64,000 nucleotides of DNA from a virus (IMGVR_UViG_3300044712_000936:23170-87169); one strand, 5' to 3'. Positions 19,128 to 59,305 are shown, numbered from the stretch's first letter. The notes: a model not told the origin generated them from the sequence alone. Made by a program: numbers and translations.

Positions 19128-19134
19128 AGTATTC

Positions 19135-25730: not shown

Positions 25731-25762
25731 GAGTCTACTCTCATAAAGTAGACTCTTTTTTT
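25731..25762 (+). terminator. Intrinsic terminator
   Basis: GAGTCTACT-CTCATAA-AGTAGACTC-TTTTTTT. Confidence 0.8.
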
Positions 25763-26670
25763 GTTTATTGTTTAAATTATTCCCCTCTGTTTTATCTGGT
25801 TTATGGTTTCCCCTATTTCTATCAATAATATTATATATTTATGTCCATCAATATATTTAAAAACAATAACTTATAAGCTTATATTTTTTATGATAAGTGT
25901 TTAAACAAATATATATTTATAGCTATCGATACAATTCTACGATTCTGTGGTAATTAAAATCATCATTATCTAGTTTAATTAGTAAGATATTACAGAATAG
26001 TCCAGTTTCTACTTACACAGATTCAAACTTTTGATATACAAGATCACTATCTTGTTTTTTAACGTGATTTAACATTCGTGAGGGGAGAATCAGATCCCTA
26101 AAACAATTCTAAATACAAAAACAAACTCTTAAAAGACCCTTTACCGATTGTACTGCCCAACAAGGCCGATCTTCGACGTTTTAGGTCTTAACATAGCGGC
26201 CCTCTACAATGCCCCGTACAGCGATTCTAGTGCCCCTGCAAGCGCGGTTATTGATCCTGTAATTAGCTCACAAATAACAACTAGGCCTCATTTGTGAACA
26301 TTGTAAATTTTTTTAAGAGAAAAGACCCAAACAGCCCACAAATAGCGACATTTAAATCAGTACCAATATTGACCAATCAAAACAGGAGAGCAAACGAAAA
26401 TGAACACTGTCAAAGTTTACACAATGGCAACAATGGGCTATATGGCGTTTTTGTTTTTCGTTTTGTTCGTGATTTTCGTCTCAGTGTTCAGTTATGCTAT
26501 TTGGAGCATGTAACCATGAACCTCATTACTCTGATCTGGTTTTTACTCTCTCTGTTGTTTGGACATTTGTCGGATCCGTGCGATTCCCCTGAGGATCATA
26601 GCAACATCGGAATCGGCATTGATTACTACACTTGCCAGCAATAGGGCATAAACAATCGAATAAACAAAGA

Positions 26671-26697
26671 AAAGCCAGCAAAAACTGGCTGTTTTTG
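26671..26697 (+). terminator. Intrinsic terminator
   Basis: AGCCAG-CAAAAA-CTGGCT-GTTTTT. Confidence 0.6.
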
Positions 26698-27297
26698 ATT
26701 CCGCAAATGTAAATTTTTTAGAACACAGGATAAGAAAATGAGAGAGGAAATTAGAACATAAAACGAATTCCGCCTCATAGGGGATTGTGTTGTTTAAAAA
26801 TATCCCCTACAATCTAAGTGTAACAAAGAAAAACAGAATAAGCGTTCTAGGCAAAGGCAAAACGAAAATGTTCAAAATCAACAGAAAATCTAGCAAACCA
26901 CTAGGAAACACACTTAACCAAAGTGAACGAGAATTGCTAGTTGGTCTGATTTTGGGCATCAGAGAAACATACGCTATTGATATGGGCAAATTATCAATGG
27001 AACTAATGAGCACAAAACCAGAGAGAGGGGAACCAATTTCTTATGAGGATTTTATAAGCGCGTTGTACTAAGCCGATCCGGGCAAGACTCAATACGAACA
27101 GATCGCAACCGAACCAAACGACATTAAGACCCGACTCAACCTTAACAATAGAACAGATAACAGGGCAGAAAACACCCTTAATGTAATGGCCCTCTATCGG
27201 ACAAACTACCGAGTCAAAAATTGAAACTTAAACTTACTTTGAAAAGACTCAGCAAAAACTTTAAAATCTGAGTGTAGCAAACAGGAGAGCAAAGGCA

Positions 27298-27954
27298 ATG
27301 ACTCAAACGACACGCGAACTAGTTCGCATAAACCTATCGTCAAAGGACAATGAGATCCAAACGCTTAACGCTATAGCGAACAGCATTAATGCCACAGATC
27401 CTAACTCTTATCTGGCCTCTCTGTTCACTCCTGAGTTTATTTCATGGGTTTCTCAAATGATCCACAGTGACATTATGCCTGATATGGAATCGGCATTAAA
27501 AGCAAACGAAAATAGCGCCCACAAAAACTCAGTTGAACACTCTCAAGCTGAGATCACAATCACAAAGCAAAGCGAATTGATTGACTCTCAGGCAGAAAGA
27601 ATCGAAACATTAACCGAACGGATCGATCTCAAAACATCGGAGATCGATTACCTAAAACGGGAACAGAGAGATCTAGAGATCGCAGGAAAAAAACAGGAGT
27701 TAAAAGAGGCTTTTCACTTGACAGAGAAAGATCTAGAGGTGGTTTGGTTCATGATCAAACGGTACTCGATTTTATATCACACTGATTACCTCTGGCGCGG
27801 TTGGTCACAGTATACGATCCGTAAGCTTGAGAAAAACGGACTAATCGACAACGAACCAGAAAACGGGATCTACAGTCTATCAATGAGGGTTGAACACTGG
27901 ATCACCCAAAACATGACAAGTGAACTATTGTACTCTGTACAGATGTTTGGATAA
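27298..27954 (+). CDS. Coiled-coil protein with possible C-terminal winged helix
   Basis: RBS; heptad-rich middle; TIRKLEKNGLI...GIYSL. Confidence 0.55.
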   Translation: MTQTTRELVRINLSSKDNEIQTLNAIANSINATDPNSYLASLFTPEFISWVSQMIHSDIMPDMESALKANENSAHKNSVEHSQAEITITKQSELIDSQAERIETLTERIDLKTSEIDYLKREQRDLEIAGKKQELKEAFHLTEKDLEVVWFMIKRYSILYHTDYLWRGWSQYTIRKLEKNGLIDNEPENGIYSLSMRVEHWITQNMTSELLYSVQMFG

Positions 27955-28466
27955 TGCCCCTATTTAATGAGGTAGGGGCAGGACAGCATAAACAGCAAAG
28001 GATCCTAATCTGTAGACACTATTCACCCAAAAAACACGACATAAATATAACGACCTGTATCTATAACACGAAAGGAAAAAAATCAAATGCCTAACTTTTT
28101 TAAGACCGTAAAGCACGAATACGAACAGCAAAAAGAAACCAACGCAAAGAATGCGCGTACAATCGCGGAATTGCGCGCCCATTTATCGCATATGATCGAG
28201 TCTTGCAATTCCTCATTGGATGTAATTGATCCGCGTGATGATATTGCATTGGCACAAATGATCACACGGAAAAACACATGTGTTGAGATCCGCTTTCTAT
28301 GATGCCGCAGCAAACGGAGAAACAGAGGAGATCGGCAGGGCATGTAGACGTATAGTGCGCATACTGTCGTAAGATTATTTATTAACTTATATTTCTTTTC
28401 ACTTAGTATTTTTTAATATCCGCATTAAAAATATAGGTTAGCGGATCGGACAAAGGAAAGGCGTAT

Positions 28467-29744
28467 ATGATCTCTGAATTCGAACAAACCTATGAAAATG
28501 ATTATTTTCCATACGAACAGATCAATGATCTGATCTGGGAATGGATACGGCAAAACGATATTAGGCGGGCTTACCTTAACGTTGAATACGCGATGGATAT
28601 TTGCCGCGAAAATTACGGGAAACTTAAGCCCGGTAAAATGATCGCAAACGCGATCAAAAAATTGATCCATATGCGGATCGATCAAATAAGGGAGGACAAT
28701 TACGAGTACCAAAAACCGATTCTTGAAAAATTGGAATCGCTTAAAATCTCTCCTGAGACAGTAACATTTTGGGGCAATGCCATAGCCAACCAACCGAAAG
28801 AAAAAATCACGATCCGTTTAACCTACGGTTGTAAAGGATCTGCACGTGAATACTATCATGTAGGTAGTTGTTGGTGGGGAGGGTATGAAACTAGTAGGGA
28901 TTACTTGGAATCTAGCTATGGCGGAGCAATTCGCGCTTATCGTAATGATGAGATTGTAGGGCGAGTCTGGTTTATTCCCTATAGTGATGGAATCATCCTG
29001 TTTAACGCCTATGGTAAGGGGGAATTAGGGAGAATCGGATCTTGGAGCAACCTACTAAAACGATCCTTTCCTGATTATTTTGTTAGCAAGGTAATGCTGG
29101 AATTCGGGGGGGATCCTGGAGTCTTATTCCAGAATTCAGAGAGCACTAATCTGTACATTGGTCCTAACAAAATCAACGATGAAACGATCAGAATCGATCT
29201 GACTCGTCCTGAGAAATTTAAATACGCCAAAGATTTAACGTTTTGCTCTCATTGCGGGATCCCTATCATCGGCGGATCTGGTTATTCCACAACCGACAAC
29301 GGAGTCATTTGTTACGCTTGTCAGAATCTTTTCTACGCCAGATCACGATCCACAGGGGCATGGATCCCAATTGAAAACGCGATAGAAGTTTATGATGCGT
29401 ACAATGATCGGTACTATGAATCGCCTGACTCGCCTGACATTATCTATGCTAGGGCAATAAACCGTTATGTTTACATTACGGATTACTGGGTGGATGTTTT
29501 TGGTACTGCCCACAGGAGAGGCGCTAGATCCTGCTTCCGTTGTCGCGTCTCTGGTAACATTTATCCTGTAGATCGCTTAGTGTGGACACAGATCGGACCA
29601 GTAGATCGGACCAATTACGATCCTGAGGTTCACGTTTTGGGAATTCCAGAACAACCGCAATATGCACCGAGTCTCAGTTTTGCGGATCGCCAGAATCAAA
29701 TGGCCCTCCGGCGGCAATGGCAACAGTTAACTAGTCTCATGTGA
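28467..29744 (+). CDS. Unknown family YYHxxSCW protein, paralogue 1
   Basis: Core GC.G.A..YYH..SCW...SR...GGAIRAY...GRVWF.P..DG..LFN.YG, then CxxC region. Confidence 0.8.
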   Translation: MISEFEQTYENDYFPYEQINDLIWEWIRQNDIRRAYLNVEYAMDICRENYGKLKPGKMIANAIKKLIHMRIDQIREDNYEYQKPILEKLESLKISPETVTFWGNAIANQPKEKITIRLTYGCKGSAREYYHVGSCWWGGYETSRDYLESSYGGAIRAYRNDEIVGRVWFIPYSDGIILFNAYGKGELGRIGSWSNLLKRSFPDYFVSKVMLEFGGDPGVLFQNSESTNLYIGPNKINDETIRIDLTRPEKFKYAKDLTFCSHCGIPIIGGSGYSTTDNGVICYACQNLFYARSRSTGAWIPIENAIEVYDAYNDRYYESPDSPDIIYARAINRYVYITDYWVDVFGTAHRRGARSCFRCRVSGNIYPVDRLVWTQIGPVDRTNYDPEVHVLGIPEQPQYAPSLSFADRQNQMALRRQWQQLTSLM

Positions 29745-29806
29745 GATTAGTTCGCTATCTCTCTAGCCTCTCTCAGGAGAGGATATTCTATTTTATCTCA
29801 GTGTTG

Positions 29807-29910
29807 TGTAAGCTTCTGTAATGCCCTACAATGGCCCTAATTAGGGAGATCGGTAGAAAACCACCTAAACAAGCATATCGCGTTAAATAGGGGCATTACA
29901 GAGGCTTACA
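29807..29910. repeat. 20-bp inverted repeat built from the AATGCCC(C)T family
   Basis: TGTAAGCTTCTGTAATGCCC (29807-29826) pairs with GGGCATTACAGAGGCTTACA (29891-29910), one G-U. Confidence 0.8.
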
Positions 29911-30495
29911 GGGGCATTGTAGAAACAATTCAACACACAAAACTTAAGAGAGGGGTACAAAACTGGCTGTTTTTGTTCATGCTCTCCTGAGACGCTAAGG
30001 TAAGCAATTCAACACTGGCATAGATCCCAGGGTAATTTTTGGCCTATCCTGAGATGCTAAAATAGGCCTCACAATGCCCTACAATGCCCCCGTTTGATAG
30101 GTGCATGGTAGTTGATACCACTATATAACTGATCGCCCCGTTTTGGGGCATTTGATCGCGTTTTCTTTCTCTCAACTATAGAATAGGTGCAATATGTTTA
30201 GAACCATTAAAACAGAAAAAATTACAGAAAAAAGAATTCGGCTTAATTTCTATTTAAATAACGCTTATATGGGTTATTATGAGGCTTTGCCTTATATGGC
30301 GATAAGTGAACTACTAATACGTATTAACAAAGGCTATACGCTAGTAGAAGACTCAGCCCTACTAGTTAGCCCGAAAAGCACCTACGGGATTGACGAAAAT
30401 TCCCGGCCTTAATTTGTCAAATAGACATGATAAATATACCCACAAAAATGAGATCGGCCCATTCTGATTCCGGCCTATTAAGATCGATCTAACGG

Positions 30496-30655
30496 ATCGG
30501 CGTGCAACGTAGGGGACTCGGCGTGTAAATTTAAAACGGCAATGAGAGGGAACAGCGTGCAAAGATCCGGCCTAATTGACTCATACTATGGAATCGGCGT
30601 GCAACTTTTCGGCACTTTCGGCGTGCAAAGAACGACTAAAGAATCAGCGTGCAAA
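30496..30655 (+). repeat. Cluster of direct repeats C(G/A)GCGTGCAA (iteron-like)
   Basis: CGTGCA cores at 30501, 30556, 30598, 30622, 30648 plus variant CGTGTA at 30522. Confidence 0.85.
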
Positions 30656-30756
30656 CCCTAGTAATAGAGGTGGAGGGTTGGGAATTGTATATATATACAT
30701 AGAAAATGCTTTTCCTTGTCCAATGGATTGCCTATATAGTATATATAGATATATAG

Positions 30757-30836
30757 AACCTTTAAAAGAACAGTATAAAAGATCAAAACCTTTAAAAAGG
30801 AATCAGATCTTAGATCAATATAGAAAACCTTTAAAA
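30757..30836 (+). repeat. Three AACCTTTAAAA repeats in a very AT-rich tract
   Basis: Copies at 30757, 30787, 30826. Confidence 0.8.
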
Positions 30837-32244
30837 GAAATAAGAATAGATCAAATACATTGACTCTATAATTAGAATATGATACAGTATATCTAAAAGA
30901 ACACTATTAAAAACGAAAGGTTTAATATAAATGGACATCGTAAAAATTATCGAATATCACGATAAGATTATAATGCACACTATTCTGTATAATGCTCCTG
31001 AATCAGTATGTGAAATTTCAAGAAAAGAATTGTATATGATTCAACGGCAATTATCTAAATGGTGGGTTACATCTTATACAGTAGAGTCAGATAAGACTAC
31101 TACAATATATGAAAGGTATTAATATTATGATCGAAACCGCCGCAATTATAAATGATATTAATAAGCGCATTGCTGAACAGCATAAACTGATTCAATTTTA
31201 CCGTATGACATTATATGTCAATTTTAGCGGTGCATGTAAGATCGTATTGCGCTCCAAACAACAGAAAAAAGTTGTTATTAATGTGACATATTCTTATATG
31301 TCTGATGCGACCAGAGGAGCGGAAATATTAAACAAATTAAAGCCGCATATTAGAATTATTATGCGGGATAATATTGTTAAGGGTATGATTATTACTTATC
31401 GGCTGTCCGTTAATTATATCTTTATTCATTCCGTTAATTAATTGATTTTCCTTAACAAAATAACCGCTTGCTTTTTTAGCAATGTGGTATATAATCTAAT
31501 TAAAGCAGATGAATTAACAATTACCAATTATTCAGCTATATAATACTCGTTTAAGTAGTTACTATTTGAACAGATCCGGAGTAGTGAACCGGGCGTAATT
31601 GCGAAATATCTGCTTTTTTATACTTATTATTTGGCTTATCTTCCGGCATTATTATGAGGACAAGCAAATGATCACAAATCAGGATATTGTCGTAGTTCTG
31701 TGTTCGTTTTTCACTGTGGGCTTTTGCTCCTGTCTAACCTATGTAGCGTTAAAGTCAATCAACCTGTTAAAACGCAAACACAAAAAAGAATTGGCAGAAA
31801 AACAGGCGGAGATCGACGCATTGTATAAGGAATTATGGGCTGTTACTTTGCTGTACCATAGTGCCCCTGTTATTGTTGGCAAAGATCAAAAATTGCCTTT
31901 GGGCAAGATTCAAAAAGCTAACGGTACAATGCGCGAGGTTACAATCGGCGGCAAACGGTACATAGGACTAGAAAGTGAGATCCAGGCATACAGTAAGGGT
32001 AAAACTAAGGTATGCCGATCCTATTGGGAATGGTCGAGTCGCCAAAACTGGAAAGAAGTGCATACTGAATATCTGATGGTTGATGAATCAGATGTTGCTA
32101 AGAGTTTTGTGCATGCAGACAGTACCCATTGTTACAAAGACTCTGTTGTCGATGTTTTGGAATTGGTGAAAAACTAAGTCCCTTTGTGCAAAGCTTTAGC
32201 GACTAAACTAGTGTACAGTATAGCATGAAAGGCAAAGGATACCG

Positions 32245-33492
32245 ATGGACATAAAAGAAACTACCAAAATTGCAGAAAGTCACAAGCATTATTCGCGGGA
32301 CACGATTCGTAATGCTGTGATGTACATCAAAGATAAGTACCGCGTCGGAATCTATGTGGGCAATTTTAGTAAACTCTGTGAGTCTATCGAAGCAAGCGAA
32401 AATGACAAAAATGCCCCTAAGCCAGCCAAGTTAGTTGCTAAGGAATTTTTAACCTATCATGGTATCCATTTAACGGCTGATGATAAAGCGGTAATTGGTA
32501 AAATGTTCGCTGATTCTATCCGTAAATCGTCCTATAAAGTTTCCCTAACTCTAGGTTGCGATGGATCAGCAAAGGACTATTATCACGCTGATTCTTGTTG
32601 GTGGGGTGGCTACTCCGATTCGCGGGAATATGTCGCCTATAACGGTGGTGGTGCTATCCGTGCTTATGATCCTGAGACTAACAAACTGTGTGGGCGTGTG
32701 TGGTTCCTTCCGGCTGATGATGGGATTGTTATCTTTAACAGCTATGGGGTAAACGAACTACAGCACACAGAATCATGGGCAACTATAGCCTCTGAATTGT
32801 TATCCGCCCCCTATTGTAAATGTACTTTACATTTGCAGCACGATCAGTATTTTTTCTTGAATGCTGGCGTGTATATCTATGTAGGTCCGAAAGTTGAACC
32901 AGATAAGCGAATCACGATCACCCTCGAGGAGTTTGACGAAAGAATCTATGATGATTCTGTTTACGCTTATTGCTCTGATTGTGATTGTGAGATTAGAAAC
33001 GAGGACGATGCTTACTACACTGTTAACGGTACAGTGTGCGAAAGTTGCTTTGATAGTTACGTATGTGTAGAATCAGAGGGCGGAGACTATTACCCTGAGG
33101 ATGATTGTGTCTATTTGCTTCATGGGCGTTATTCGGAATGGTTTCTAACGGATAGCTCTGATGTAGTCTCAACTATTAATGGTGCGTATGAATTAGTAGA
33201 AAACTGCATTGAGGACGTTTACGGCAATTATTATCAGATGGATGATGATATTGACGATGTATTTCTGTGTGATGCTACAGAAGAATACTACCCTATTAGC
33301 GAACTTCTGACCCTTGCTGATGGTCGTCACATTGCCGAGTCGAACTATGATCGGGATGAATACGGGCCACTAGAGGGAGAAGAACCAGAAGAGGACGATG
33401 ACGAACCAGAGATCGCCCCTGTAGTTTTGCCCCTCCTTTCTGTAGGCTACTTTGGTTACATTCACTTTCAACTTCCGAACCTTGTATATTAG
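32245..33492 (+). CDS. Unknown family YYHxxSCW protein, paralogue 2, acidic Cys-rich tail
   Basis: Same core as 28467-29744. Confidence 0.8.
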   Translation: MDIKETTKIAESHKHYSRDTIRNAVMYIKDKYRVGIYVGNFSKLCESIEASENDKNAPKPAKLVAKEFLTYHGIHLTADDKAVIGKMFADSIRKSSYKVSLTLGCDGSAKDYYHADSCWWGGYSDSREYVAYNGGGAIRAYDPETNKLCGRVWFLPADDGIVIFNSYGVNELQHTESWATIASELLSAPYCKCTLHLQHDQYFFLNAGVYIYVGPKVEPDKRITITLEEFDERIYDDSVYAYCSDCDCEIRNEDDAYYTVNGTVCESCFDSYVCVESEGGDYYPEDDCVYLLHGRYSEWFLTDSSDVVSTINGAYELVENCIEDVYGNYYQMDDDIDDVFLCDATEEYYPISELLTLADGRHIAESNYDRDEYGPLEGEEPEEDDDEPEIAPVVLPLLSVGYFGYIHFQLPNLVY

Positions 33493-33842
33493 CGTGCTAG
33501 ACGCGCTGTAGTGCCCCTAAATGGGGCATTACGGTTTACACAGGTATCGTCTACCGTGTACTATCAGAATTGAGGCAAGCATGGCGAATAAACAGATCAG
33601 ATATATCACGACTTATACAGGATACAACGACCACACTGGCAACGTTGACACGACTATTAATGTTGAACGAACAGACGGATCTGTGCGAACGTTTGAGTTG
33701 GCTAGTTTTGCCAACTGTGCTCGAATTCAGAATATCTATAATACCCATAATTTAAATACTAAAATTAACGTTTATCCTGGTGCTACCTTTGTTATGTGGT
33801 GTAGGTTTTGGGTAGACTACTATGCTTTGACAGGTAAAAATT

Positions 33843-34337
33843 ATGATCAACAAACAGCTAAGACCAGCCCCACGCCACAATAGACCAAACAGGCGTGAAA
33901 CTTATTATCTAGTGGCGTGCCAGATCTGTGGCAAGGATCGCTGGCTGAGAAAATCTGATATTGGAACAGCGTGCAGATCCTGTGCTATGAGATTCCGCGA
34001 CAAAACTTCTCTATTAAGGGCAGTACAACGGAAACAGCGTATGGCCCCTAGCAAGCCAGAGGCTACCGTTTTAGATTGGTTGACGAGAATCGGCGTGCAG
34101 TTTGAGCATCAGGCGATCTTCGATGACAGCGTGTTAGATTTTCGACTAGGATCGGCGTATGTCGAAGTTAACGGTTACTGGCATTTGCACAATCCTCGCA
34201 AGATACAAAAAGATCAGCGTATAGCGGAACAGCTAGGTAAAAACTTGCTGGTTATCGATGCAAAAGATGTTGTTGAGAAACCTGTAAAAGCTTACCTTTC
34301 TTTAATCCAGTTTATTACGACAGCGTGCAACGTATAG
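33843..34337 (+). CDS. Zinc ribbon plus DUF559/Vsr-like endonuclease
   Basis: CQIC..CRSC; SKPE..V..WL; LDF...VEVNGYWH...KDQR. Confidence 0.7.
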   Translation: MINKQLRPAPRHNRPNRRETYYLVACQICGKDRWLRKSDIGTACRSCAMRFRDKTSLLRAVQRKQRMAPSKPEATVLDWLTRIGVQFEHQAIFDDSVLDFRLGSAYVEVNGYWHLHNPRKIQKDQRIAEQLGKNLLVIDAKDVVEKPVKAYLSLIQFITTACNV

Positions 34338-35084
34338 GAGTCATAATGCCTAAATTGACGGACTTTGAACGAGGGACAATCGTTAGAGTTATTAAACCCT
34401 TTGATGCTGATCGAACACCGTGCCCCCAAAAAGGCACAGTAGGTATTGTGTACCGGGTAGATGATGATGGTTTTATCTGTGTGGCTTTCTTTCTACCGAT
34501 GTGGGATACACGCGGTAACGAGTGGTTATCTCAGGGCAATAATAGCATATTTATGCGATTGCGTTTCTTTCCTGATGAACTAGAGATCGTTGACGTTTTG
34601 TAAGTGATTAATAATTGAACAGCGTGCAACAAAACAGGAGTATAAAATGGATCATACAGAATGCATAATTTGGAACATATTTATATTAATACTTTCTTTC
34701 GGTTCGATTATATTGGCAAGCACTATATCTGGTCTGTTGATGATCGTGCTAGGTACAGTGGGAGTCTTTGGTTTGTATTTTAGCGTCATATCCCTCGCTA
34801 CTCTGTTAGGCGACGATTATAAATAAGGAGAAATTATGTATACAAATAGGTTTTTTATAATGGCGTTGTTAATGACGCTGTTCTATAGCAAGGCAAACGA
34901 TAAGTTAGAATTCAGTATTGTTGTTATTGCTATGTTCGTAATATACAGCCTATCGGCTATTGCTGACGAGTTACACAATATCAATAAACATCTAAGCAAA
35001 AAATAACGTGCAACGAATTGTCAAACCCTTAAGATAGGCCTCTGTAGTGGAGACATACCTTAAGGGAATCTCCTACCTTTTCTC

Positions 35085-35112
35085 TTGACTTAACGTGCAA
35101 CTGTGGTATAAT
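35085..35112 (+). promoter_or_regulatory. Promoter with a CGTGCAAC motif in its spacer
   Basis: TTGACT-16 nt-TATAAT with extended -10 TG. Confidence 0.7.
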
Positions 35113-35153
35113 TGTAATTAGAGTAAAAGACAGGGTAAAGGATAAACCTACTT

Positions 35154-36119
35154 ATGATGATTCAAGACGGTTACACACAGATTTACTCTGGTTTCGCGGG
35201 TGTTTCTCGTCGTTGTCTGGATAACGTCTATACGTGGTTGATTAACCGCTACAATGTCAGTAATCCAGCACAATACGAACACTTTAACGCTTTTGTAGAA
35301 ACCGTGCAGAAAACGGAATCGCGCCCAACTAAGGCTATCTGCAAATTTTTCCACGACGTTTTTAACGTGGACATTAATTCATATGACAAGGCAACAGCCG
35401 GAACATATATCCGTAAAAATTCCCTCATGGGATCCTACAAATTCGTTTTTACCTACGGTTGTGCTGGCAATGCTGCTGATTATTACCACAGTAATTCCTG
35501 TTGGTTCCACGAGTATCCAACTTCGCGTGATATGCTTGAGGGAAATGGTGGGGGTGCAATTCGGGCCTACACTGTTGATACCAACGACATTACTGGTCGG
35601 GTCTGGTTCTTGCCTCACGACGATGGTTTGGTGTTGTTCAACAGCTACGGACAGGGAGATTTACAGCATACCCAAACGTGGGGTGCTGTGGTAGCTCATT
35701 TGTTGGATACTTTGACCTGTGAAGCAAAACTGAATATTGACTCTCCCTATATGATTTACATTAACGGATCTAAAGCGGCATATGTAGGGCCAAAAGTAGT
35801 CAACGACACTAAGCAAATCGACGTCACATTGAAAACGCCCACTGTTTTCCATTACACTCCTGTGCAATACTGCCATGATTGTAATCGTGTTTTGGTTCGA
35901 GGTGGCGAACGAGTGTACATTAGTATGGCTGATTATTATGTATGTGATAAGTGCGTTGATCGTTATACCTATGTCCAAAACCGTGTAGGTATGTACCCCT
36001 CTCATATGTGTGTGAGAGTGTACGTTCACGGTGCATTTATCGGTAACTATTTGTGTACAGAACCGGGGATTGTTTACGACGAAAAAATGGGATACTATAC
36101 CTTTCGAGAACGAATGTAA
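35154..36119 (+). CDS. Unknown family YYHxxSCW protein, paralogue 3
   Basis: Same core (YYHSNSCWF, GGGAIRAY, GRVWFLP, LFNSYG). Confidence 0.8.
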   Translation: MMIQDGYTQIYSGFAGVSRRCLDNVYTWLINRYNVSNPAQYEHFNAFVETVQKTESRPTKAICKFFHDVFNVDINSYDKATAGTYIRKNSLMGSYKFVFTYGCAGNAADYYHSNSCWFHEYPTSRDMLEGNGGGAIRAYTVDTNDITGRVWFLPHDDGLVLFNSYGQGDLQHTQTWGAVVAHLLDTLTCEAKLNIDSPYMIYINGSKAAYVGPKVVNDTKQIDVTLKTPTVFHYTPVQYCHDCNRVLVRGGERVYISMADYYVCDKCVDRYTYVQNRVGMYPSHMCVRVYVHGAFIGNYLCTEPGIVYDEKMGYYTFRERM

Positions 36120-36137
36120 AACGGAAAAGAGAAAGCA

Positions 36138-37061
36138 ATGAAAACAAATCGACTACAAAAATACTGCAATGTTTCCATTGAACACCTACGCAAGATAGGA
36201 AAGTTTACGCCTTGTACTCGTGACGGTGCGGGATATACCTTTATTGATCGCGGATCAAATGTGCTGGCAGTAGCTCACATCGATACCGTGCAACAGGGAA
36301 CAAACTTTAAGGTTACTGGTTTAAATGGCGGTGCAGTGTACTCCCCTCGTTTGGATGATAGACTCGGCGCTTACACGATTATAGAATATCTACCATCGGT
36401 AGGTGTCAAAATGGACGTGCTGCTTTGTGAGGACGAAGAAACTATGCAAAGCACAGCGGCCTACTTTCAAACGCTAAAGAAATACAATTGGATGGTTGAG
36501 TTTGATCGCGGTGGTCGTGACACAGTTTTGTATCAATATCACTATGATAAAACCTTTTCTGATGAACTAGAACGACACGGTTTTATCTTGGGGCACGGAA
36601 CCTATAGCGATATTGCTGACTTGGGACATTTAGGCTGTTTAGGTGTGAATTGTTCGGCTGGTTATTACAATTACCATACCAAAGACGCCTTTGTTTTAGT
36701 TGAAGTGTGGCAGAAGTCAGTTGATAGTTTTGTCAGTTTCTATAACGATAACAAAGACACCTATTATCCTCACGACAAGACTAACGATTACTACAACGAA
36801 AGTTCACTGTGGGATCGGGACGATTACTACTACGGGACAGGCAAGTACGGTACTACGTATTATGGTAACAAAAAGAATAATCGTGCTCTGGTCAATGTAG
36901 AGTGGACTAAATGCCCTACCTGTGAAGAAGTCCGTACAGATCGGGCAGATCGTAACCTGATCGACTACTTTGGAATGTGTTCAGAGTGTTTGATTTACGT
37001 GGATCGTTATCAACAGAAGTACAATAAGAATCCTAATCCCCCCACTACTCAGGGGGGATGA
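36138..37061 (+). CDS. M28/M20-like zinc peptidase or amidohydrolase
   Basis: Metal-ligand series AHIDTV, LDDRLG, EDEE, EFDR, YSDI, GYYNYHT. Confidence 0.8.
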   Translation: MKTNRLQKYCNVSIEHLRKIGKFTPCTRDGAGYTFIDRGSNVLAVAHIDTVQQGTNFKVTGLNGGAVYSPRLDDRLGAYTIIEYLPSVGVKMDVLLCEDEETMQSTAAYFQTLKKYNWMVEFDRGGRDTVLYQYHYDKTFSDELERHGFILGHGTYSDIADLGHLGCLGVNCSAGYYNYHTKDAFVLVEVWQKSVDSFVSFYNDNKDTYYPHDKTNDYYNESSLWDRDDYYYGTGKYGTTYYGNKKNNRALVNVEWTKCPTCEEVRTDRADRNLIDYFGMCSECLIYVDRYQQKYNKNPNPPTTQGG

Positions 37062-38392
37062 TACCTATTGAGAGAAAGGCTATAACGATGGATTTAAAAG
37101 ATACGTCTTTTGTGTACACGACTGATGGTATGTCTTATGATCCAGATACCTTGTACAAGGCGTTAGAGTGGTTGCACCATTCACATCATATTGAGTGTTG
37201 CCCCTGCCATACCTTGCCAGCCATAAGCGAATACCTAGAAAATACCACAGCTAAACCAGCTAAAGCTATTTCTAAGTATTTTGCTGATCATTATGGTATT
37301 AAACTGGCGACAGAACAGCGTACAGAGTTTGGCAACCGGGTTAGCTGTGCTCGTATGGCACGCACCTATAAGGTGGTATTAACCCTCGGTTGTCAGGGTA
37401 ACTCGGATGATTATTATCATGAACGGTCTTGCTGGTGGGGTAGTTATAGCATTTCTCGTGACTTTGTTGAGTTTAACGGCGGCGGCGCTGTCCGTGTTTA
37501 CACCATAGATGGAGACATTCAGGGTAGAGTGTGGTTTTTGCCCTTCGATGATGGTATTGTTCTGTTTAATAGTTATGGTCTAGGCGAATTACAGCATGTA
37601 CATTCGTGGGGGCCAATAGTCGCACAGCTATTAGATACAGATTTTTGTAAGTCAACTATGGAAATTCTCAACAATCGGGGACATCTTTACATTAACAGTG
37701 AGGTTTCTGCTTATGTAGGGCCAAAAATTGTACCTATTTCAACTAAACACTGTAAGATTCGGCTATCTATCCCTGACAGGTTCGTATACAGCCCTGCTAG
37801 GGTCTGTAGTCATTGTGAAAGGGTATTTAGCGATGGCGGAGATGTTCGTTTGCTGGAATTTAATGATCAGTATGTTTGTGGAGGTTGCCTAGACGAATAT
37901 TATGCCTACGATGTGATAGATCGTATGTATAAGCCCAAAGAATTAATGCAAAAGGTTTGGGGCATGTTCCAATACTCTACGGCACGTCAAAAATGGTTTT
38001 CAGTTGTGCCAAGTGACGCGGTATATATAGATTCAATGGGCTATTGTTTACCAGATTGTTTGGTTGATGATGTTTATGGTACTCAACATCTAGTAGGATC
38101 TGGTACTTATTTTCGCTGTGACTTCTCCGATAAACTCTATCCTAGAAGTGAGTGGACAAGGACTGTATTAGGTGCGGTGGCTAAATCTGTTGTAGCTACC
38201 GACGAATTTAAAGCTAAGGTAGCTGAATACGAAAAGACGCAAGAGAAAGCCAGAGATGAGTGGAGACAGGAACGTCTTTTTCGCTCTACAGGAATAACAC
38301 AAAAGAGTGCGTCATTCAATTTTAAACCACCGTCTATTGACTGGGGAACACTGTTTACAAACTTTGTCGATGACGATCAGGACCATTCTTAA
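37058..38392 (+). CDS. Unknown family YYHxxSCW protein, paralogue 4
   Basis: Same core; overlaps the peptidase stop codon. Confidence 0.8.
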   Translation: MIPIERKAITMDLKDTSFVYTTDGMSYDPDTLYKALEWLHHSHHIECCPCHTLPAISEYLENTTAKPAKAISKYFADHYGIKLATEQRTEFGNRVSCARMARTYKVVLTLGCQGNSDDYYHERSCWWGSYSISRDFVEFNGGGAVRVYTIDGDIQGRVWFLPFDDGIVLFNSYGLGELQHVHSWGPIVAQLLDTDFCKSTMEILNNRGHLYINSEVSAYVGPKIVPISTKHCKIRLSIPDRFVYSPARVCSHCERVFSDGGDVRLLEFNDQYVCGGCLDEYYAYDVIDRMYKPKELMQKVWGMFQYSTARQKWFSVVPSDAVYIDSMGYCLPDCLVDDVYGTQHLVGSGTYFRCDFSDKLYPRSEWTRTVLGAVAKSVVATDEFKAKVAEYEKTQEKARDEWRQERLFRSTGITQKSASFNFKPPSIDWGTLFTNFVDDDQDHS

Positions 38393-39189
38393 CGGAGTGG
38401 TCCTCCACCATGAGAGGGGATCCTATGAAGATTCTTATTGAACAACAGGGATCGAAACAGCGTGCAACTTTTTGTGTTATTGTGCAAAAAGGTAAAACTA
38501 GTAAGAGTGTTTCCGGTATTTCTGATAAAGCAGTCATGAGGATTTTGCGGTGGATATGCAAGAAAAACTTTACTTATCAAGGTGCGACTTTTGATGTGGC
38601 ATCCGATACAGTTACGATTGTCTTTGTCGGGGAGATGGTTTCCAATGTTGCCTCTTAGTTTTGAAACTAAAGACATCGAGTGGACACGCGAGGAAATACG
38701 TGCTGTCTTAGACCTGATTAAAAAACAGGAACCTACGTTACTCAGGGTATCTATGCCCGATGCTTGGCTGTTCAAAAAGTCTTTGTACAAAGGCCAAACA
38801 TACTATATAGCACGGCGCATGACTTCTTTTAGCTGTGACGCTGTAACCACAACCTTCGATAACTTTATTGCTGAAATGGAGTCTTACTATGATCGCTACT
38901 ATGGGAGAGGGTATGAAAACTACCTTAAAAACAGTAGTTATTAAGTTCAACGATGTAAAGGACGGAAGTCACCCTGATCGTGTACATATGATTGAATATG
39001 TTTATGCTGATGGGACAACGTGCAGCTTGGCAGGAAACGATGATCTGGTGATGGGGGTTGTACTGACTCTTATGAAACTCGGTTTATCGAACCAGCGTGC
39101 AGCACAGGAATTAGTGGACAATTCTAGCGGTGAACCTGTGGTTGTTGAGGACGATGTGCAACCGCTGGTGGCAGAATACGTACTGCAAT

Positions 39190-39222
39190 AAAAAAAGAAC
39201 CCGGCTCATCACCGGGTTTTTT
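39190..39222. terminator. Bidirectional terminator between convergent genes
   Basis: A-tract, AACCCGG-CTCATCA-CCGGGTT, T-tract. Confidence 0.8.
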
Positions 39223-39228
39223 GTTTGT

Positions 39229-40065
39229 CTACAATGTACAGGCGTTGTTTGTGTGTTTGGTATGGGCAATTCTAGCACCTTTCGGCGTAGAGGTATAGCC
39301 ATCTTTACCACATTCACATTCCCAACGATACCGCTTCTTTTTTGGATTACTGGGGATATAACTGATATATTCTGGTAAACCATAGATAATCTTGTTTGGC
39401 TCTGGCAGCTGCTTTTGTTTAGGCTCTGAGATTAGGGGTACAGAATCACTAACAGGCTGATCAATAACCGGATCGGCGTGCAACGTTATAGTCAGTAATT
39501 GGCGTCGAAGTTTCTGTACATATTCAGCCTGTAATTCATCGGCAATGTTCATGATAGCCAATTCCATTTGTTTGTTTTTAACGGTTCGCTGTTTTTCACT
39601 CAGCTGGCGTGCATCTTTTCTTTCTTGTCTAACCTTGTCTCGTTCAAAAAAGATTTCCCAGTGAGAATCCTTGTAGGCTCTCCAATCAGCTACAAACCAG
39701 CCTGTTGTCACCACCGTCATGATACCTAAACCAATACGAGGGGCAAAGGCCATCAGTCCACTGTCCTTGAAGCCAATGACCACGATGGATAAATAGAGCG
39801 CAAATAGACCCATCACGTAGGCCCACCGTACCGCTATAGTCTCATCGTCCCTTATTGGCTCCTCGAGAAAGCCAAGTAAAGCAATATACATAATATCAAT
39901 CAGAAACACAGCTAATATTGTTGCTGTAGTTGCTACAAATTCACCGTGCCCTCTCAACTCTTGCTTAAAAATGTCCCATGTAGAAACCGAATTAAACGCG
40001 GTTCCTGCAACCTTAGCGATCAACCACAACTGTTTATTAGTAATGTTTTTTATAAAGTTCTTCAT
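39229..40065 (-). CDS. Multi-TM membrane protein with coiled coil and C-terminal C2H2-like finger
   Basis: About four hydrophobic segments; CECG...AHTKH; opposite strand to the surrounding block. Confidence 0.65.
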   Translation of the reverse strand: MKNFIKNITNKQLWLIAKVAGTAFNSVSTWDIFKQELRGHGEFVATTATILAVFLIDIMYIALLGFLEEPIRDDETIAVRWAYVMGLFALYLSIVVIGFKDSGLMAFAPRIGLGIMTVVTTGWFVADWRAYKDSHWEIFFERDKVRQERKDARQLSEKQRTVKNKQMELAIMNIADELQAEYVQKLRRQLLTITLHADPVIDQPVSDSVPLISEPKQKQLPEPNKIIYGLPEYISYIPSNPKKKRYRWECECGKDGYTSTPKGARIAHTKHTNNACTL

Positions 40066-40105
40066 GTGAGATTAACCTTCCGCTATGATGGATAATAATA
40101 CTTTA

Positions 40106-40134
40106 ATTATATCATCGTTTTGTTTAGAATGCAA
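40106..40134 (-). promoter_or_regulatory. Promoter for the minus-strand membrane protein
   Basis: TTGCAT-17 nt-TATAAT. Confidence 0.65.
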
Positions 40135-40330
40135 GAGGTATTTATTCTTTTTTAATTGTTACAGCGTAGGTGACTATATTAAGTACATCCTGTACATTAT
40201 TTATGATAATACGATTAGCGGAAACAGCGTGCAACACTAGAAAAACAAGAAGTAAATTAGTGATAAAGGAGAGCACCAGCAGTAAAATAAGTATCATTGT
40301 TAGAATCCCGTTATAAAATAGATGAAAGGC

Positions 40331-40359
40331 TTGACAAACATTCAACTGTATAGTATTAT
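40331..40359 (+). promoter_or_regulatory. Promoter for the Y RNA array / Ro60 unit
   Basis: TTGACA-17 nt-TATTAT; predicted start about 40366, coinciding with the first RNA stem. Confidence 0.8.
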
Positions 40360-40366
40360 ATATCTA

Positions 40367-40461
40367 ACGTGGCCTGACAAAAAGCCTTTGCCTTGTCGGT
40401 TCGGTTGTAAACATTATGTGATCCTCCTTTCGAGTTTGGACTATGTAGTGTCAGGCCATGT
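40367..40461 (+). ncRNA. Stem-closed 95-nt RNA containing anti-SD-like GATCCTCCTTT
   Basis: 13-bp closing stem ACGTGGCCTGACA/TGTCAGGCCATGT beginning at the predicted TSS. Confidence 0.55.
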
Positions 40462-40478
40462 TTTCTTAGACCGTATAT

Positions 40479-40602
40479 TGCGGGTCGTTTGGTGTACGTT
40501 ACCGATGCTAACGGAGTGGTTAGAGGTTCGAATCCTTTACCCCGGCAACGGGGTTAGCTCAATTGGTAGAGCACTTAACCGTATACCTACCTATTATCCG
40601 CA
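40479..40602 (+). ncRNA. yrlA: Y RNA, YrlA type (tRNA mimic)
   Basis: Bulged-C stem TGCGGGT(C)G/TATCCGCA; second helix GGTGTACG/CGTATACC; permuted tRNA domain with T arm AGAGG-TTCGAAT-CCTTT, acceptor-like hairpin ACCCCG-GCAA-CGGGGT, D arm GCTC-AATTGGTA-GAGC; upstream of Ro60. Confidence 0.9.
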
Positions 40603-40617
40603 TGGTAATGAAAATGA

Positions 40618-40681
40618 ATCGGGTCGAATCGTTTTGGTTATCCTTTGACGATAATCACCAAGACGAGACAATTTATCCGGT
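40618..40681 (+). ncRNA. Short Y RNA (64 nt), Ro-binding module with minimal loop
   Basis: ATCGGGT(C)GAA/TTTATCCGGT bulged stem; TCGTTTTGGT/ACCAAGACGA; shared GGTTATC motif. Confidence 0.75.
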
Positions 40682-40696
40682 GATATAGCTTTGTAG

Positions 40697-40779
40697 TTTT
40701 GGGTCGCTGTATCAGGGTTATCTTATATCTGGCTACACGCTAGTGATAAACAACCACCCTGTACGACTTTAACCCGAAA
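40697..40779 (+). ncRNA. Short Y RNA (about 83 nt)
   Basis: TTTTGGGTCG/TAACCCGAAA; GTA(T)CAGGGT/ACCCTGTAC; shared GGTTATC motif; apical CTGGC/GCTAG hairpin. Confidence 0.7.
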
Positions 40780-40782
40780 ATG

Positions 40783-40814
40783 AGCAGACCGGAATTATTC
40801 CTGTCTGCTTTTTT
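40783..40814 (+). terminator. Intrinsic terminator between Y RNA array and Ro60 gene
   Basis: AGCAGAC.GGAA-TTA-TTCC.GTCTGCT followed by a T-run. Confidence 0.75.
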
Positions 40815-40837
40815 ATTTATATAGCTAGGAGCTAAAA

Positions 40838-42418
40838 ATGGCAAAGTATACTCAGTATTTTGACCCGCAGAAGATTCCTCAGACTAAACCTTTACCCAAG
40901 AGTAAACAGGTTCCTAATAGTGCTGGTGGTTATGTTTACGCCATTGAACCCTGGTCGCAGCTGTATCGTTTTCTGATCCTGGGAACTACTGGTGGAACTT
41001 ATTACTCATCGGAGCACGATTTAACCGTGCAAAACTATGACGTTGTTTTGGCGTGCATAGAACAGGACGGTAGACGTGTTGTTGATATGATCCTGGAAGT
41101 TTCAAAAGAGGGGCGTGCAGCGAAAAATGATCAGGCATTGTTTACGCTGGCACTGTGCGCGGCGGCTGATTCGGTTGACACTCGTCGTTATGCCCTGATG
41201 AACTTGGATCAGGTTGCTCGAACCGGAACACACTTGTTTGAGTTTATGGAATACGTGCAGCTTTTCCGGCGTTGGGGTCGTGCTTTGCGTGCTGCTGTTG
41301 GCAACTGGTACAAGCGCAATCCTGATCATATCGCTTTGCAGGTTATGAAGTATCGCCAGCGTAACGGCTGGACTCATCGTGACGCTTTGCGTATGGCTCA
41401 TCCAACACCTGAAACGCCAGAGCAGAACGATTTGTTTAACTGGATCTGCAACGAAGAACCGTCTGAACTACTGTTGTCCAGCATTCCTATGATCAATGGA
41501 TTTATGCAAATTCAGCGTGCAACAACGGCGGCAGAGGCAGCGAAGTTGATTTCTGAGTATCGTTTGCCACGCGAGACTGTGCCTACACAGTTTCTAAAGG
41601 ATGCGGTTGTTTGGGATGCCTTGTTAGATCATATGCCCATGACAGCCCTGATTCGTAATCTTGGCAATATGAGTGCTTGCGGTTTGTTAAAGCCTAACAG
41701 TAATGCGGCAATGGAAGTTGCTGATAAACTGTCAGACGATCAGCATATCCGTTCTTCTCGTTTGCATCCAATGTCTATTTTAACGGCATTGTCAACTTAC
41801 CATTCTGGTTCAGGTTTACGGGGTCACAATACCTGGACTCCTGTTCCACAGGTAATTGATGCTCTGGACGATGCTTTTTACAAAGCTTTTAATAATGTTA
41901 CACCTACTAACAAACGATATTACGTCGGTGTCGATGTTTCTGGCAGCATGAGAACCAGTTTCTGTGACGGTGTTTTGTCCTGTTGTATGGGTGCAGCGGC
42001 TATGGCTATGGAAATCGCCCGAACCGAGCCACGCTACTTCATTCAGGGTTTTTGTGATACGATGGTTGATCTGGACTTTACAGCTAAGACGTCTCTTACT
42101 GATGCTGTTTCTAAGGCCAGCAAGCGCAATTTTGGTAGAACAGATTGTGCCCAACCAATGATTCACGCATTGAACAACGGCATCGAAGCTGATGTCTTTG
42201 TGGTCATTACGGATAATGAAACCTATGCAGGTAAAATTCATCCATCAGAAGCCTTGCGTGTGTACCGGAAACAAACAGGTATTCAGGCTAAGTTAGCGGT
42301 AATCGCTATGACTTCAACTGGCTTCTCTATTGCGGATCCGTCCGATCCGAACATGCTTGACTTTGTTGGTTTCGATGCAAACCTTCCATCTGCTTTGTCT
42401 CAGTTTGCTCTCCTGTAA
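40838..42418 (+). CDS. rsr: Ro60/Rsr TROVE-domain RNA-binding protein with vWA domain
   Basis: QVPNSAGGYVY, RFLILGT.GGTYY, RTGTHLF, WGRALR, KYRQRNGWTHRDALRMAHP, MPMTALIRNLG, MIDAS DVSGSM, TDNET. Confidence 0.97.
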   Translation: MAKYTQYFDPQKIPQTKPLPKSKQVPNSAGGYVYAIEPWSQLYRFLILGTTGGTYYSSEHDLTVQNYDVVLACIEQDGRRVVDMILEVSKEGRAAKNDQALFTLALCAAADSVDTRRYALMNLDQVARTGTHLFEFMEYVQLFRRWGRALRAAVGNWYKRNPDHIALQVMKYRQRNGWTHRDALRMAHPTPETPEQNDLFNWICNEEPSELLLSSIPMINGFMQIQRATTAAEAAKLISEYRLPRETVPTQFLKDAVVWDALLDHMPMTALIRNLGNMSACGLLKPNSNAAMEVADKLSDDQHIRSSRLHPMSILTALSTYHSGSGLRGHNTWTPVPQVIDALDDAFYKAFNNVTPTNKRYYVGVDVSGSMRTSFCDGVLSCCMGAAAMAMEIARTEPRYFIQGFCDTMVDLDFTAKTSLTDAVSKASKRNFGRTDCAQPMIHALNNGIEADVFVVITDNETYAGKIHPSEALRVYRKQTGIQAKLAVIAMTSTGFSIADPSDPNMLDFVGFDANLPSALSQFALL

Positions 42419-44681: not shown

Positions 44682-44753
44682 GCTACAGTAGCGCAACGGT
44701 AGAGCACCAGACTTTTAATCTGTAGGTTGGAGGTTCGAATCCTCTCTGTAGCA
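44682..44753 (+). tRNA. tRNA-Lys(UUU)
   Basis: GCTACAG/CTGTAGC; CAGA-CTTTTAA-TCTG; GGTTCGAATCC. Confidence 0.9.
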
Positions 44754-44756
44754 CAG

Positions 44757-44838
44757 GCAGGTGTGGTGAAATCGGAAAACACAATTCACTTAAAATGAAT
44801 CGGGGAAACCCTTATCGGTTCGAATCCGATCACCTGCA
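44757..44838 (+). tRNA. tRNA-Leu(UAA)
   Basis: GCAGGTG/CACCTGC; ATTCA-CTTAAAA-TGAAT; variable arm GGG-GAAA-CCC-like. Confidence 0.9.
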
Positions 44839-44861
44839 TAGATTATATTGTAGGAGCAAAT

Positions 44862-45386
44862 ATGGTATACGAACTAAGAAAACGTGGTAATGGATACTTA
44901 TATTTTATAGATAAAAATCATCCACTTGCCAGAAAAGAAAGCAGTTACATGGTGTATTACCATCGTCATATAGCATCGTTGAAAATCGGTAGATGGCTTA
45001 ACGAGGACGAGCATGTACATCATATTGACGGAAACACGTACAATAACGATCCCGATAATTTAGAAATTATGTCTAATTCTGAGCATACTTCTGTTCATCA
45101 TCCAGGTAATAAAAGGGCTATTAAAAAATGTATGTATTGCCATAAAGAATACGAACAAATAGCACAAACACAAAAATACTGCTCTGATAAATGTGCTCAT
45201 TTGGGTAATAGAAAAGTGAATAGGCCGTCTAAAGAAGAATTAGAACAAGAAATAATGGCTATGAATTGGTTAGCGTTAGGTAGAAAGTACGGTGTAAGCG
45301 ACAATGCTGTAAGAAAGTGGGCAAAAGATTATAGTATCCCGGTAATAAAAAGAAAATACACACGCTCCCGTAGCTCAGCGGATTAG
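44862..45386 (+). CDS. HNH homing endonuclease inside tRNA cluster
   Basis: YYHRHIA...VHHIDGNTYNNDPDNLE...EHTSVH; CxxC..YCSDKC; C-terminal HTH. Confidence 0.88.
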   Translation: MVYELRKRGNGYLYFIDKNHPLARKESSYMVYYHRHIASLKIGRWLNEDEHVHHIDGNTYNNDPDNLEIMSNSEHTSVHHPGNKRAIKKCMYCHKEYEQIAQTQKYCSDKCAHLGNRKVNRPSKEELEQEIMAMNWLALGRKYGVSDNAVRKWAKDYSIPVIKRKYTRSRSSAD

Positions 45387-45440
45387 AGCCGCCGCCCTCT
45401 AAGCGGTGTGGTGTCGAGAGTTCGAATCTCTCCGGGAGCA
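45364..45440 (+). tRNA. tRNA-Arg(UCU), atypical C33
   Basis: GCTCCCG/CGGGAGC; GCCGC-CCTCTAA-GCGGT; A20 Arg determinant; overlaps the 3' end of the HNH ORF. Confidence 0.8.
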
Positions 45441-45443
45441 CAC

Positions 45444-45527
45444 GGAGACAAAGCACTAATGGATGTGCGCCAGTCTGTAGAACTGGTTAGCTTAGGCTAG
45501 TTGGTGGTTCGAGTCCACCTGTCTCCA
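45444..45527 (+). tRNA. tRNA-Tyr(GUA)
   Basis: GGAGACA/TGTCTCC; CCAGT-CTGTAGA-ACTGG; long variable arm TAGC-TTAG-GCTA. Confidence 0.88.
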
Positions 45528-55805: not shown

Positions 55806-55844
55806 TATAGTATTGATAAGATAGCTTCGAGTGTGAGGACTCTG

Positions 55845-58648: not shown

Positions 58649-59305
58649 TTGGGAATACCAAGAACCGCTGCCAAAAGAGACGCCAACGAACAAGAGATCG
58701 TGGAAGCTTTACGGCGCTGTGGCGCGAAAGTAGAGCGATTATCACTGCGAGATGCGCCCGATTTACTGATTGGCTACCAGGGGAGCAATTATTTGGCTGA
58801 GGTAAAAATCAAGAAGGGGCAGCTTACACCAGAACAAAAAGTGTGGCACGAAACTTGGCCTGGACAGAGCATTGTTATCCATTCGGTAGAAGAAGCGATA
58901 GACTTCATTGATAACTTGAATTTTTGCGAAAGTGCCGTGTTGGATCCGCGCTATTTCTCCCTTATGGGTAATAGCAACACTACGAAATGGCGTGCAACTT
59001 TACGCGATAAGATGATCCGAAAGCGTAACTGGTTATCTGATGTCAGTAAACAGTCTATTTTACAGACTGGCTTTGATATGCACGAGGCGATTATCCCTCG
59101 TGCTGTTGTTCCGGCAAGTGTTCAGTGGTCGTGGATGATTCATTGTGAGTATAACATTCTTATCTTAACACGAGAAGAACACATGAATCCGCCTGATCGT
59201 AAATGGGCTTATCAATACCTATGTAGTATGTATGGAGCAGATAAAATAGATGCCTGGATACAATCTTTGCCCTGGAAAGTTCCACCTGAAAAAGCGTGGT
59301 TGTGA
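58649..59305 (+). CDS. PD-(D/E)xK (VRR-NUC-like) nuclease fused to a second domain
   Basis: RDANE..IV.AL, PDLL, AEVK, LTPEQ..W. Confidence 0.75.
   Translation: MGIPRTAAKRDANEQEIVEALRRCGAKVERLSLRDAPDLLIGYQGSNYLAEVKIKKGQLTPEQKVWHETWPGQSIVIHSVEEAIDFIDNLNFCESAVLDPRYFSLMGNSNTTKWRATLRDKMIRKRNWLSDVSKQSILQTGFDMHEAIIPRAVVPASVQWSWMIHCEYNILILTREEHMNPPDRKWAYQYLCSMYGADKIDAWIQSLPWKVPPEKAWL

Follow-up and report, generated by a model that had tools for sequence, protein, structure and literature searches.

The window analysed here is a 64,000-nucleotide stretch of DNA, bases 23170-87169 of the 87,169-bp IMG/VR record IMGVR_UViG_3300044712_000936, which belongs to an uncultivated soil phage; coordinates are window positions unless stated otherwise, and promoters and terminators throughout are predictions. 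Between positions 30501 and 41521, the word CGTGCA occurs 24 times on the plus strand and not once on the minus strand. This array begins with a dense group of direct copies (the seed cluster) within a 1.2-kb non-coding region and ends inside the gene of a Ro60 protein (TROVE and vWA domains). Genes are directed leftward from approximately 24 kb and rightward from approximately 26 kb, and the two arms converge at approximately 59.7 kb.

The phage is deeply novel and very isolated. Nothing close to it was found among 50,697 phage records by megablast and tblastn, with no nucleotide match, and the best identity of its DNA polymerase to that of any cultured phage was 27%. The Pfam and PHROG families were blank for nearly all proteins encoded in the array block. 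Two rhizosphere sequencing runs, one of which may derive from the source sample, contain the phage as assembled contigs, and the run search listed no RNA runs containing it. The 87,169-bp record carries a 127-bp repeat at its termini, which is most simply accounted for as an assembly overlap.

Enrichment, polarity and anatomy of the word

A preliminary description of this stretch had listed 24 plus-strand positions of CGTGCA, and every coordinate proved exact. It had also reported no opposite-strand copy in the interval and no plus-strand copy to its left. Both statements hold within the window; in the full record, a further plus copy was found far to the left, at genome position 19364. Outside the array, the full record holds a further 5 plus and 9 minus copies. 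The extended word GCGTGCA was found 17 times on the plus strand and never on the minus strand of the array block, with 2 occurrences on both strands of the other 76 kb, and CRGCGTGCAAC was found 8 times on the plus strand and never on the minus strand.

Dinucleotide shuffles gave 21.9 ± 4.5 CGTGCA per 64 kb on both strands, that is, approximately 1.9 per strand per 11 kb, in agreement with the earlier estimate of roughly 2 by chance. When the rest of the genome was taken as the reference, 24 copies were observed against 1.14 expected (Poisson 1e-23), and the 17 copies of GCGTGCA stood against 0.18 expected. A synonymous-codon shuffle within genes yielded 3.7 ± 1.6 plus copies in genes, with a maximum of 10 among 1000 shuffles, versus the 14 observed. 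When codons were redrawn from the phage usage outside the block and summed per gene, approximately 2.3 copies were expected versus 15 observed; under this null, the Ro60 gene alone was expected to carry 0.46 copies and carries 5 (P<1/3000), and the gene at 33843-34337 was expected to carry 0.22 and carries 3. Both the enrichment and the strand bias, which the preliminary description had exposed to refutation by models of this kind, thus survived the dinucleotide null and the two codon-preserving nulls. The absence of minus-strand copies is not significant alone, with approximately 1-2 expected, and the polarity claim is made because all of the approximately 22 excess copies share one orientation.

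The genic copies lie in all three reading frames and encode unrelated peptides, which rules out a peptide motif. The use of all three frames, together with the antisense copies in a real minus-strand gene (see below), therefore indicates a signal at the level of DNA and not a peptide or codon effect; codon bias, which the preliminary description had also discounted, is excluded as the explanation by the frames and by both codon-preserving nulls. It is clear that selection keeps the word in the block. The array covers 13% of the genome, and elsewhere the word is no denser than background. When k-mers were scanned territory by territory over the whole genome, no second such word emerged, and the other candidate territory words, GATGCTTT and GAGTATGA, look like coding coincidences.

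The flanks of the word were examined in the 19 dispersed copies, which were chosen by the six-base core only. On the left, C was conserved at -3, R at -2 and G at -1, and on the right, R at +6 and C at +7 (14 of 19, p = 1.6e-8). Conservation was significant at these five flank positions, giving the consensus CRG-CGTGCA-RC, and the addition of the seed copies revealed a weaker G-R-A-W further 5'. The fullest form of the word is GRAWCRGCGTGCAAC, which four copies fit perfectly. Core-mismatched copies are nearly absent, indicating that the core is strict and the flanks are graded. The site is thus asymmetric, 11-15 bp long and devoid of dyad symmetry, as is typical of protein-DNA recognition. Similarity among the dispersed copies stops beyond approximately 15 nt, which rules out a mobile repeat. 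None of the known host words examined (Chi variants, FtsK orienting polar sequences [KOPS], SpoIIIE recognition sequences [SRS] and the DnaA box) matched the word.

The dense cluster noted earlier at 30.5 kb was confirmed, and its six members (Table 1) are irregularly spaced, with start-to-start distances of 21, 34, 42, 24 and 26 bp. As RNA, the cluster is predicted to be unstructured (z = +1.5), and no intrinsic terminator was predicted at the left border, between the cluster and the upstream operon. The 200 bp at 30732-30931, starting 80 bp past the last repeat, have a GC content of 21.5% and are the second most AT-rich of the genome. The seed cluster is followed by a copy-free gap of 3.3 kb, and a second gap, of 2.2 kb, occurs later in the array. 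The first sub-cluster of dispersed copies covers the end of the first operon, two copies close to ribosome-binding sites and the P35085 promoter, and the next one straddles a bidirectional terminator (39194-39222) and a minus-strand gene. The right border of the array falls inside the Ro60 gene; the transcription unit next to the right has a perfect consensus promoter at 42449 and a single copy of the word.

Table 1. Features of the CGTGCA array and its surroundings (window positions)
Feature	Position	Strand	Description
Seed cluster	30494..30655	+	six direct copies in 160 bp: five intact CGTGCA and one degenerate CGTGTA (~30515-30529)
AT-rich stretch right of the seed cluster	30680..30931		ATWGTATATATA repeats, three copies of AAAACCTTTAAAA, GATC sites
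Weak promoter-like site	30860-30888		inside the AT-rich stretch
Sub-cluster, 8 copies in 1.3 kb	33963..35308	+	33970, 34094, 34324, 34623, 35007, 35094, 35303 and flanks
P35085 promoter	35085..35112	+	predicted, near-consensus sigma70-type TTGACT-16-TATAAT, TG-extended; word TAACGTGCAAC in the 16-bp spacer
Isolated copy	36287..36292	+	within M28-like peptidase gene
Sub-cluster, 6 copies in 1.8 kb	38454..40235	+	38461, 39019, 39096, 39477, 39608, 40228
Minus-strand gene	39229..40065	-	membrane protein with C-terminal Cys/His segment
Right-hand sub-cluster, 5 copies within 500 bp	41026..41521	+	first third of Ro60 gene 40838-42418
Outlying near-perfect 15-mer, one mismatch	58984..58998	+	17 kb outside the array, 0.75 kb before arm convergence

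The region to the left of the array is rich in GATC. A block of approximately 6.5 kb (24291-30891) contains 91 GATC sites, corresponding to 13.8 per kb versus approximately 4.5 per kb elsewhere, and the flanks of these sites are not conserved. This block extends from the gene-divergence region to exactly the seed cluster, where a palindromic mark adjoins the polar one. In addition, a second repeat family, GGGCATTRYAG, shows 12 matches with at most one mismatch versus 3 expected, in both orientations. Its sites are located at 29816-30089 and also at 24783, 26204 and 33506-33534, mostly just upstream of the gene at 30194 and in intergenic spacers. This family looks like a classical operator set for another regulator.

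Genes, promoters and relatives

Twenty-two of the 24 copies are in sense orientation within rightward genes or occur in spacers transcribed rightward, and two are antisense in a minus-strand gene. These two fit an orientation with transcription only if rightward read-through is taken as the reference. The gene in question (39229-40065) was judged to be genuine because its codon score in its own frame, 0.225, equals the genome mean and the other five frames score negative. It is separated from the convergent upstream operon by the bidirectional terminator, which is predicted to be strong, and contains, in plus orientation, a perfect 15-mer at 39470-39484 together with the weak copy at 39608. 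The presence of the perfect 15-mer in this gene indicates that orientation tracks the block or rightward transcription and not the local gene. The preliminary description had assigned three copies (39477, 39608 and 40228) to minus-strand genes; this assignment was upheld for the first two, whereas the small open reading frame at 40228 has a codon score of -0.015 and its copy is better called intergenic.

As had been described, the copy at 35094 lies in a promoter spacer, that of the P35085 promoter, and the copies at 34324 and 34623 lie just before ribosome-binding sites, 22 and 24 nt ahead of ATG codons preceded by AGGAG. The latter two copies are both perfect and bracket a gene for a protein of 85 amino acids. 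Among the dispersed copies, 4 of 19 are in non-coding DNA, which makes up approximately 12% of the sequence, and 15 of 19 are in genes, so that non-coding DNA is not significantly favoured. In each of two neighbouring genes, a copy is located exactly 149 nt from the start; as these genes show no homology, the coincidence was treated as chance. Inspection of the contexts revealed no -10 element at constant spacing downstream of the word, and a reading as middle promoters like those served by MotA of T4 was rejected.

Several genes of the phage deserve description in their own right. Four paralogues (28467-29744, 32245-33492, 35154-36119 and 37058-38392) encode an unrecognised Cys/His protein; the others share 29-38% identity with the copy at 37058-38392, with invariant GC.G and YYH..SCW motifs and two CxxC pairs. 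Homologues were found only on a few metagenome contigs and on one 85-kb Logan contig, and two of the four paralogues fall in the copy-free gaps of the array. The gene at 33843-34337, which carries three copies of the word, encodes a protein of 164 amino acids with an N-terminal CxxC...CxxC ribbon; by eye, its C-terminal segment resembles Vsr/DUF559-type endonucleases, and its only database match was a weak one to PHROG 4538. A T4 Rnl1-like RNA ligase (22971-24026, minus strand) and a full-length Ro60 protein with TROVE and vWA domains (40838-42418, plus strand) occur together in this one phage. Four tRNA genes were detected with Rfam in two pairs at 44682-45527, with an HNH endonuclease gene (44862-45386) between them. 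The genome also encodes at least four DNA methyltransferases (11279-12100, 18399-19163 and 21839-22705 on the minus strand and 54793-55437 on the plus strand), of which two are of the N6/N4 type, one is a C5-cytosine methylase (21839-22705) and one is a small Eco57I-like catalytic domain. An XerC/D-like tyrosine recombinase (55794-56762), the only recombinase found, is encoded within the replication module; it may point to a temperate phage or serve in multimer resolution.

Searches of IMG/VR with the 444-amino-acid paralogue, Ro60, PolA and an alignment of the paralogues returned only one relative (L009/G001), which has 3-4 proteins in common with the phage, a GC content of 53% and no comparable array. 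Four short contigs were obtained from the JGI metagenomes, and the word was absent from them. The protein on the 85-kb Logan contig (P0002) is a 41%-identical paralogue. A search for a triple-copy pattern of the word in IMG/VR and in 185,579 reference (GTDB) genomes returned only unrelated regular tandem repeats, and a literature search for the word strings returned nothing relevant. There is thus no such array in the relatives examined or in cultured phages, and its absence from IMG/VR and the 185,579 reference genomes is as expected for a phage-private pair of protein and site.

An operator and roadblock protein as the candidate reader

The preliminary description had proposed oriented sites for a DNA-tracking or coating protein and offered a menu of mechanisms (entry or packaging translocation, KOPS/Chi-like polarity, stoperator-like repression or primase sites). 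Its first part stands, in that the sites are selected and oriented beyond codon bias; the menu has been narrowed but not settled. The existence, selection, orientation and asymmetry of the word are established, as is its restriction to this block, and one copy overlaps a predicted promoter. We infer that a protein binds the word, acts on transcription and represses it. Specifically, the words may be oriented docking sites for a phage-encoded DNA-binding protein that serves as operator-binding repressor and roadblock in the manner of stoperator systems, a tentative reading to which we assign a probability of about 0.35.

In such a system, one sequence-specific phage protein would dock at the word on duplex DNA and would enter the block at the seed cluster at 30.5 kb, a site of high occupancy. 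This cluster of six copies would insulate the block from the upstream operon, which lacks a terminator, and the copy in the P35085 spacer would be a true operator. The other copies, aligned with rightward transcription, would form roadblocks dependent on orientation, by which rightward transcription of the 11-kb early block is shut down or insulated. The plus-oriented copies in the minus-strand gene would halt rightward read-through and spare the leftward transcript of the gene itself.

Stoperator-like repression is the best fit on the menu, given an asymmetric site of 11-15 bp, the placement of one copy in a promoter spacer and the alignment of every copy with rightward transcription. The repressors of Cluster A mycobacteriophages bind 20-30 asymmetric 13-bp sites oriented with transcription, some of which lie in promoters and most of which block elongation (PMC6550527). 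Like the stoperators of this cluster (L5 gp71-type), the array consists of a couple of dozen copies of an asymmetric site of approximately 13 bp, predominantly in one orientation, which is that of transcription for 22 of the 24 copies and for the other two only if rightward read-through is the reference; few copies are in promoters (here 35094, as predicted), most are elsewhere, and the motif is private to the phage. The array differs from them in that the six-copy cluster comes first and that most dispersed copies are inside genes. The operators of phage P1 C1 offer another comparison, being asymmetric sites of the 17-bp class that are recognised by a monomeric repressor and dispersed in many copies. 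The array resembles them in the asymmetry and dispersal of its sites, but the C1 operators are located at promoters genome-wide and have no common orientation.

A number of observations weigh against an operator and roadblock protein. The 24 copies are confined to 11 kb of 87 kb, whereas the Cluster A stoperators are distributed genome-wide, and no repressor gene was recognised. Outside the seed cluster, non-coding DNA is not enriched in copies, most of which are written into genes; of four good promoters within the block or next to it, a single one has a copy; the 3.3 kb past the seed cluster are copy-free, which would make the silencing of the whole block patchy; and the core is unusually strict for a set of operators, with hardly any mismatches. 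In addition, no DNA-binding protein was linked to the word. No helix-turn-helix or repressor family was detected in the approximately 80 proteins scanned. A protein of 72 amino acids encoded upstream of the seed cluster, which by eye was a candidate ribbon-helix-helix protein, was not convincing, as its Atlas model shows no likeness to that fold and resembles RNase-H-like fragments, and neither was a protein of 218 amino acids, as its model is all-helical with no confident winged helix. The latter has distant relatives of its N-terminal part (best E 4e-8, 47 below 1e-3), and these match nothing in Pfam apart from coiled-coil noise. The 85-amino-acid protein is a DUF4314/SH3-like barrel and is not convincing as the reader. 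The array would work most like stoperators, but without two of their defining features, a genome-wide spread and an identified repressor; the proposal of stoperator-like repression in the preliminary description is retained to this extent.

Alternative readings and significance

Another possibility is that the seed cluster is an iteron-type replication origin, at which an initiator would bind and melt the DNA, and that the dispersed copies sequester this initiator by titration or handcuffing. Distant extra iterons accompany the origins of P1 (incC/incA) and P4 (ori/crr). As in these, a cluster of direct repeats is found here beside an AT-rich, GATC-containing stretch, together with distant copies: 80 bp separate the six repeats from the 200 bp ranking second in AT content genome-wide, which contain three 13-mer repeats and GATC sites, and the repeats stand at the edge of the GATC-dense block. 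Unlike in P1 and P4, the spacing is irregular and shows no evident constant number of helical turns, Pfam and PHROG scans revealed no recognisable initiator gene beside the cluster, and no DnaA box is nearby. Titration, moreover, would not require 18 satellites spread over 11 kb to point strictly one way, and an origin of this kind is considered unlikely. A perfect DnaA box, TTATCCACA, occurs just once, on the minus strand at 25247, at a distance of 5 kb from the cluster and 0.6 kb from the most AT-rich 200 bp of the genome (25807-26006, 21% GC), which lie in the divergence region; judged by these elements, that region would be an equally good candidate for the origin.

Reading might instead take place on the sense RNA or, during transcription, on the non-template strand, with the word as the target of a phage endoribonuclease or RNA-binding protein following the logic of T4 RegB, or as an ops-like loading site for an elongation factor. 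As an RNA signal, it would mark early mRNAs for decay or translational shut-off. In line with this, 22 of the 24 copies are on the sense strand or in rightward spacers, two are just upstream of ribosome-binding sites, the seed cluster would lie in unstructured read-through RNA, and the phage is rich in RNA biology (Ro60, RNA ligase and tRNAs). However, the genuine minus-strand gene, which lies behind a strong bidirectional terminator, holds a perfect 15-mer and a weak copy in antisense orientation; the predicted accessibility of the copies was 0.31 versus 0.35 for GC-matched controls (p = 0.5); and the promoter-spacer copy lies upstream of the start of the transcript concerned. Both the recognition of such RNA and the marking of early mRNAs therefore appear quite unlikely.

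A Chi-like array would modulate a helicase-nuclease of the RecBCD/AddAB type, either that of the host or a phage equivalent, which would enter the DNA at an end located right of 41.5 kb. Chi sites are distributed 20 versus 3 by orientation in LLS and 32 versus 0 in MD8, concentrated near one genome end (PMC12315714), and the array would protect or recombine the DNA end as in these phages. It resembles theirs in being a strict short word with very few near-misses, present in 20-30 nearly one-way copies (here in one orientation throughout, with five copies in the last 500 bp at the right border), restricted to one region of the genome and spread through coding sequence irrespective of the genes. 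It departs from theirs in its conserved flanks, which extend the site to 11-15 nt, longer than known Chi words and not a flank-free word of 5-8 nt, and in its dense tandem cluster, which stands at the far left side. Furthermore, the word matched none of six known Chi words (Escherichia coli, Pseudomonas, Bacillus, Lactococcus, Staphylococcus and Haemophilus), there is no known end in the vicinity of 42 kb, and the distance to the terminase gene is 35 kb. Accordingly, we regard a Chi-like function, including the protection or recombination of an end, as very unlikely. The E. coli-type Chi word GCTGGTGG itself occurs 7 times in the genome versus approximately 1.1 expected from composition, at 37431, 39164 and 40922 on the plus strand of the rightward arm and at 17036 and three sites further left on the minus strand of the leftward arm. 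This excess is a weak hint of an enterobacterial-type host or of a coding effect.

Equally improbable is a guide for a translocase or coating protein that would load at the seed cluster and move rightward by the logic of KOPS or SRS, pulling in or clearing the early block during entry or replication. The uniform orientation whatever the local gene direction, the loading-type cluster at one border and the sharp borders of the territory are compatible with such a guide, but a candidate translocase was not found, the array occupies 11 kb only and is interrupted by gaps of 3.3 and 2.2 kb, and mirrored copies are absent from the other arm. Unlike KOPS and SRS, the word shows no replichore-wide skew that flips between the arms, and its reverse is not enriched on the other arm. 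Two further items of the earlier menu are disfavoured: KOPS-like genome-wide polarity, in view of the missing mirrored copies and the confinement of the word to 13% of the genome, and primase sites, for which the word is too long and too local. Finally, the array may be an instance of an undescribed device that recurs among phages, whereby a single temporal block of early genes is marked by an orientation-dependent word of its own. This suggestion is rather doubtful, as is the version of it in which the word would be read on DNA by a directional machine that nucleates at the tandem cluster and couples entry, replication or insulation to gene timing.

The evidence shows a selected, oriented, asymmetric and phage-private recognition site. 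If a protein reads the word, a compact control system would exist for a block of unrecognised early genes in a deeply novel phage, and the controlled block would include the Ro60/Y-RNA module and the four paralogues of the unrecognised Cys/His protein. The seed cluster could serve directly as bait in a search for the reader. To our knowledge, orientation-dependent site arrays are represented by very few systems (stoperators, Chi and KOPS), and an array that is confined to one temporal block, starts with a tandem cluster and adjoins a GATC-marked block would extend this short list.

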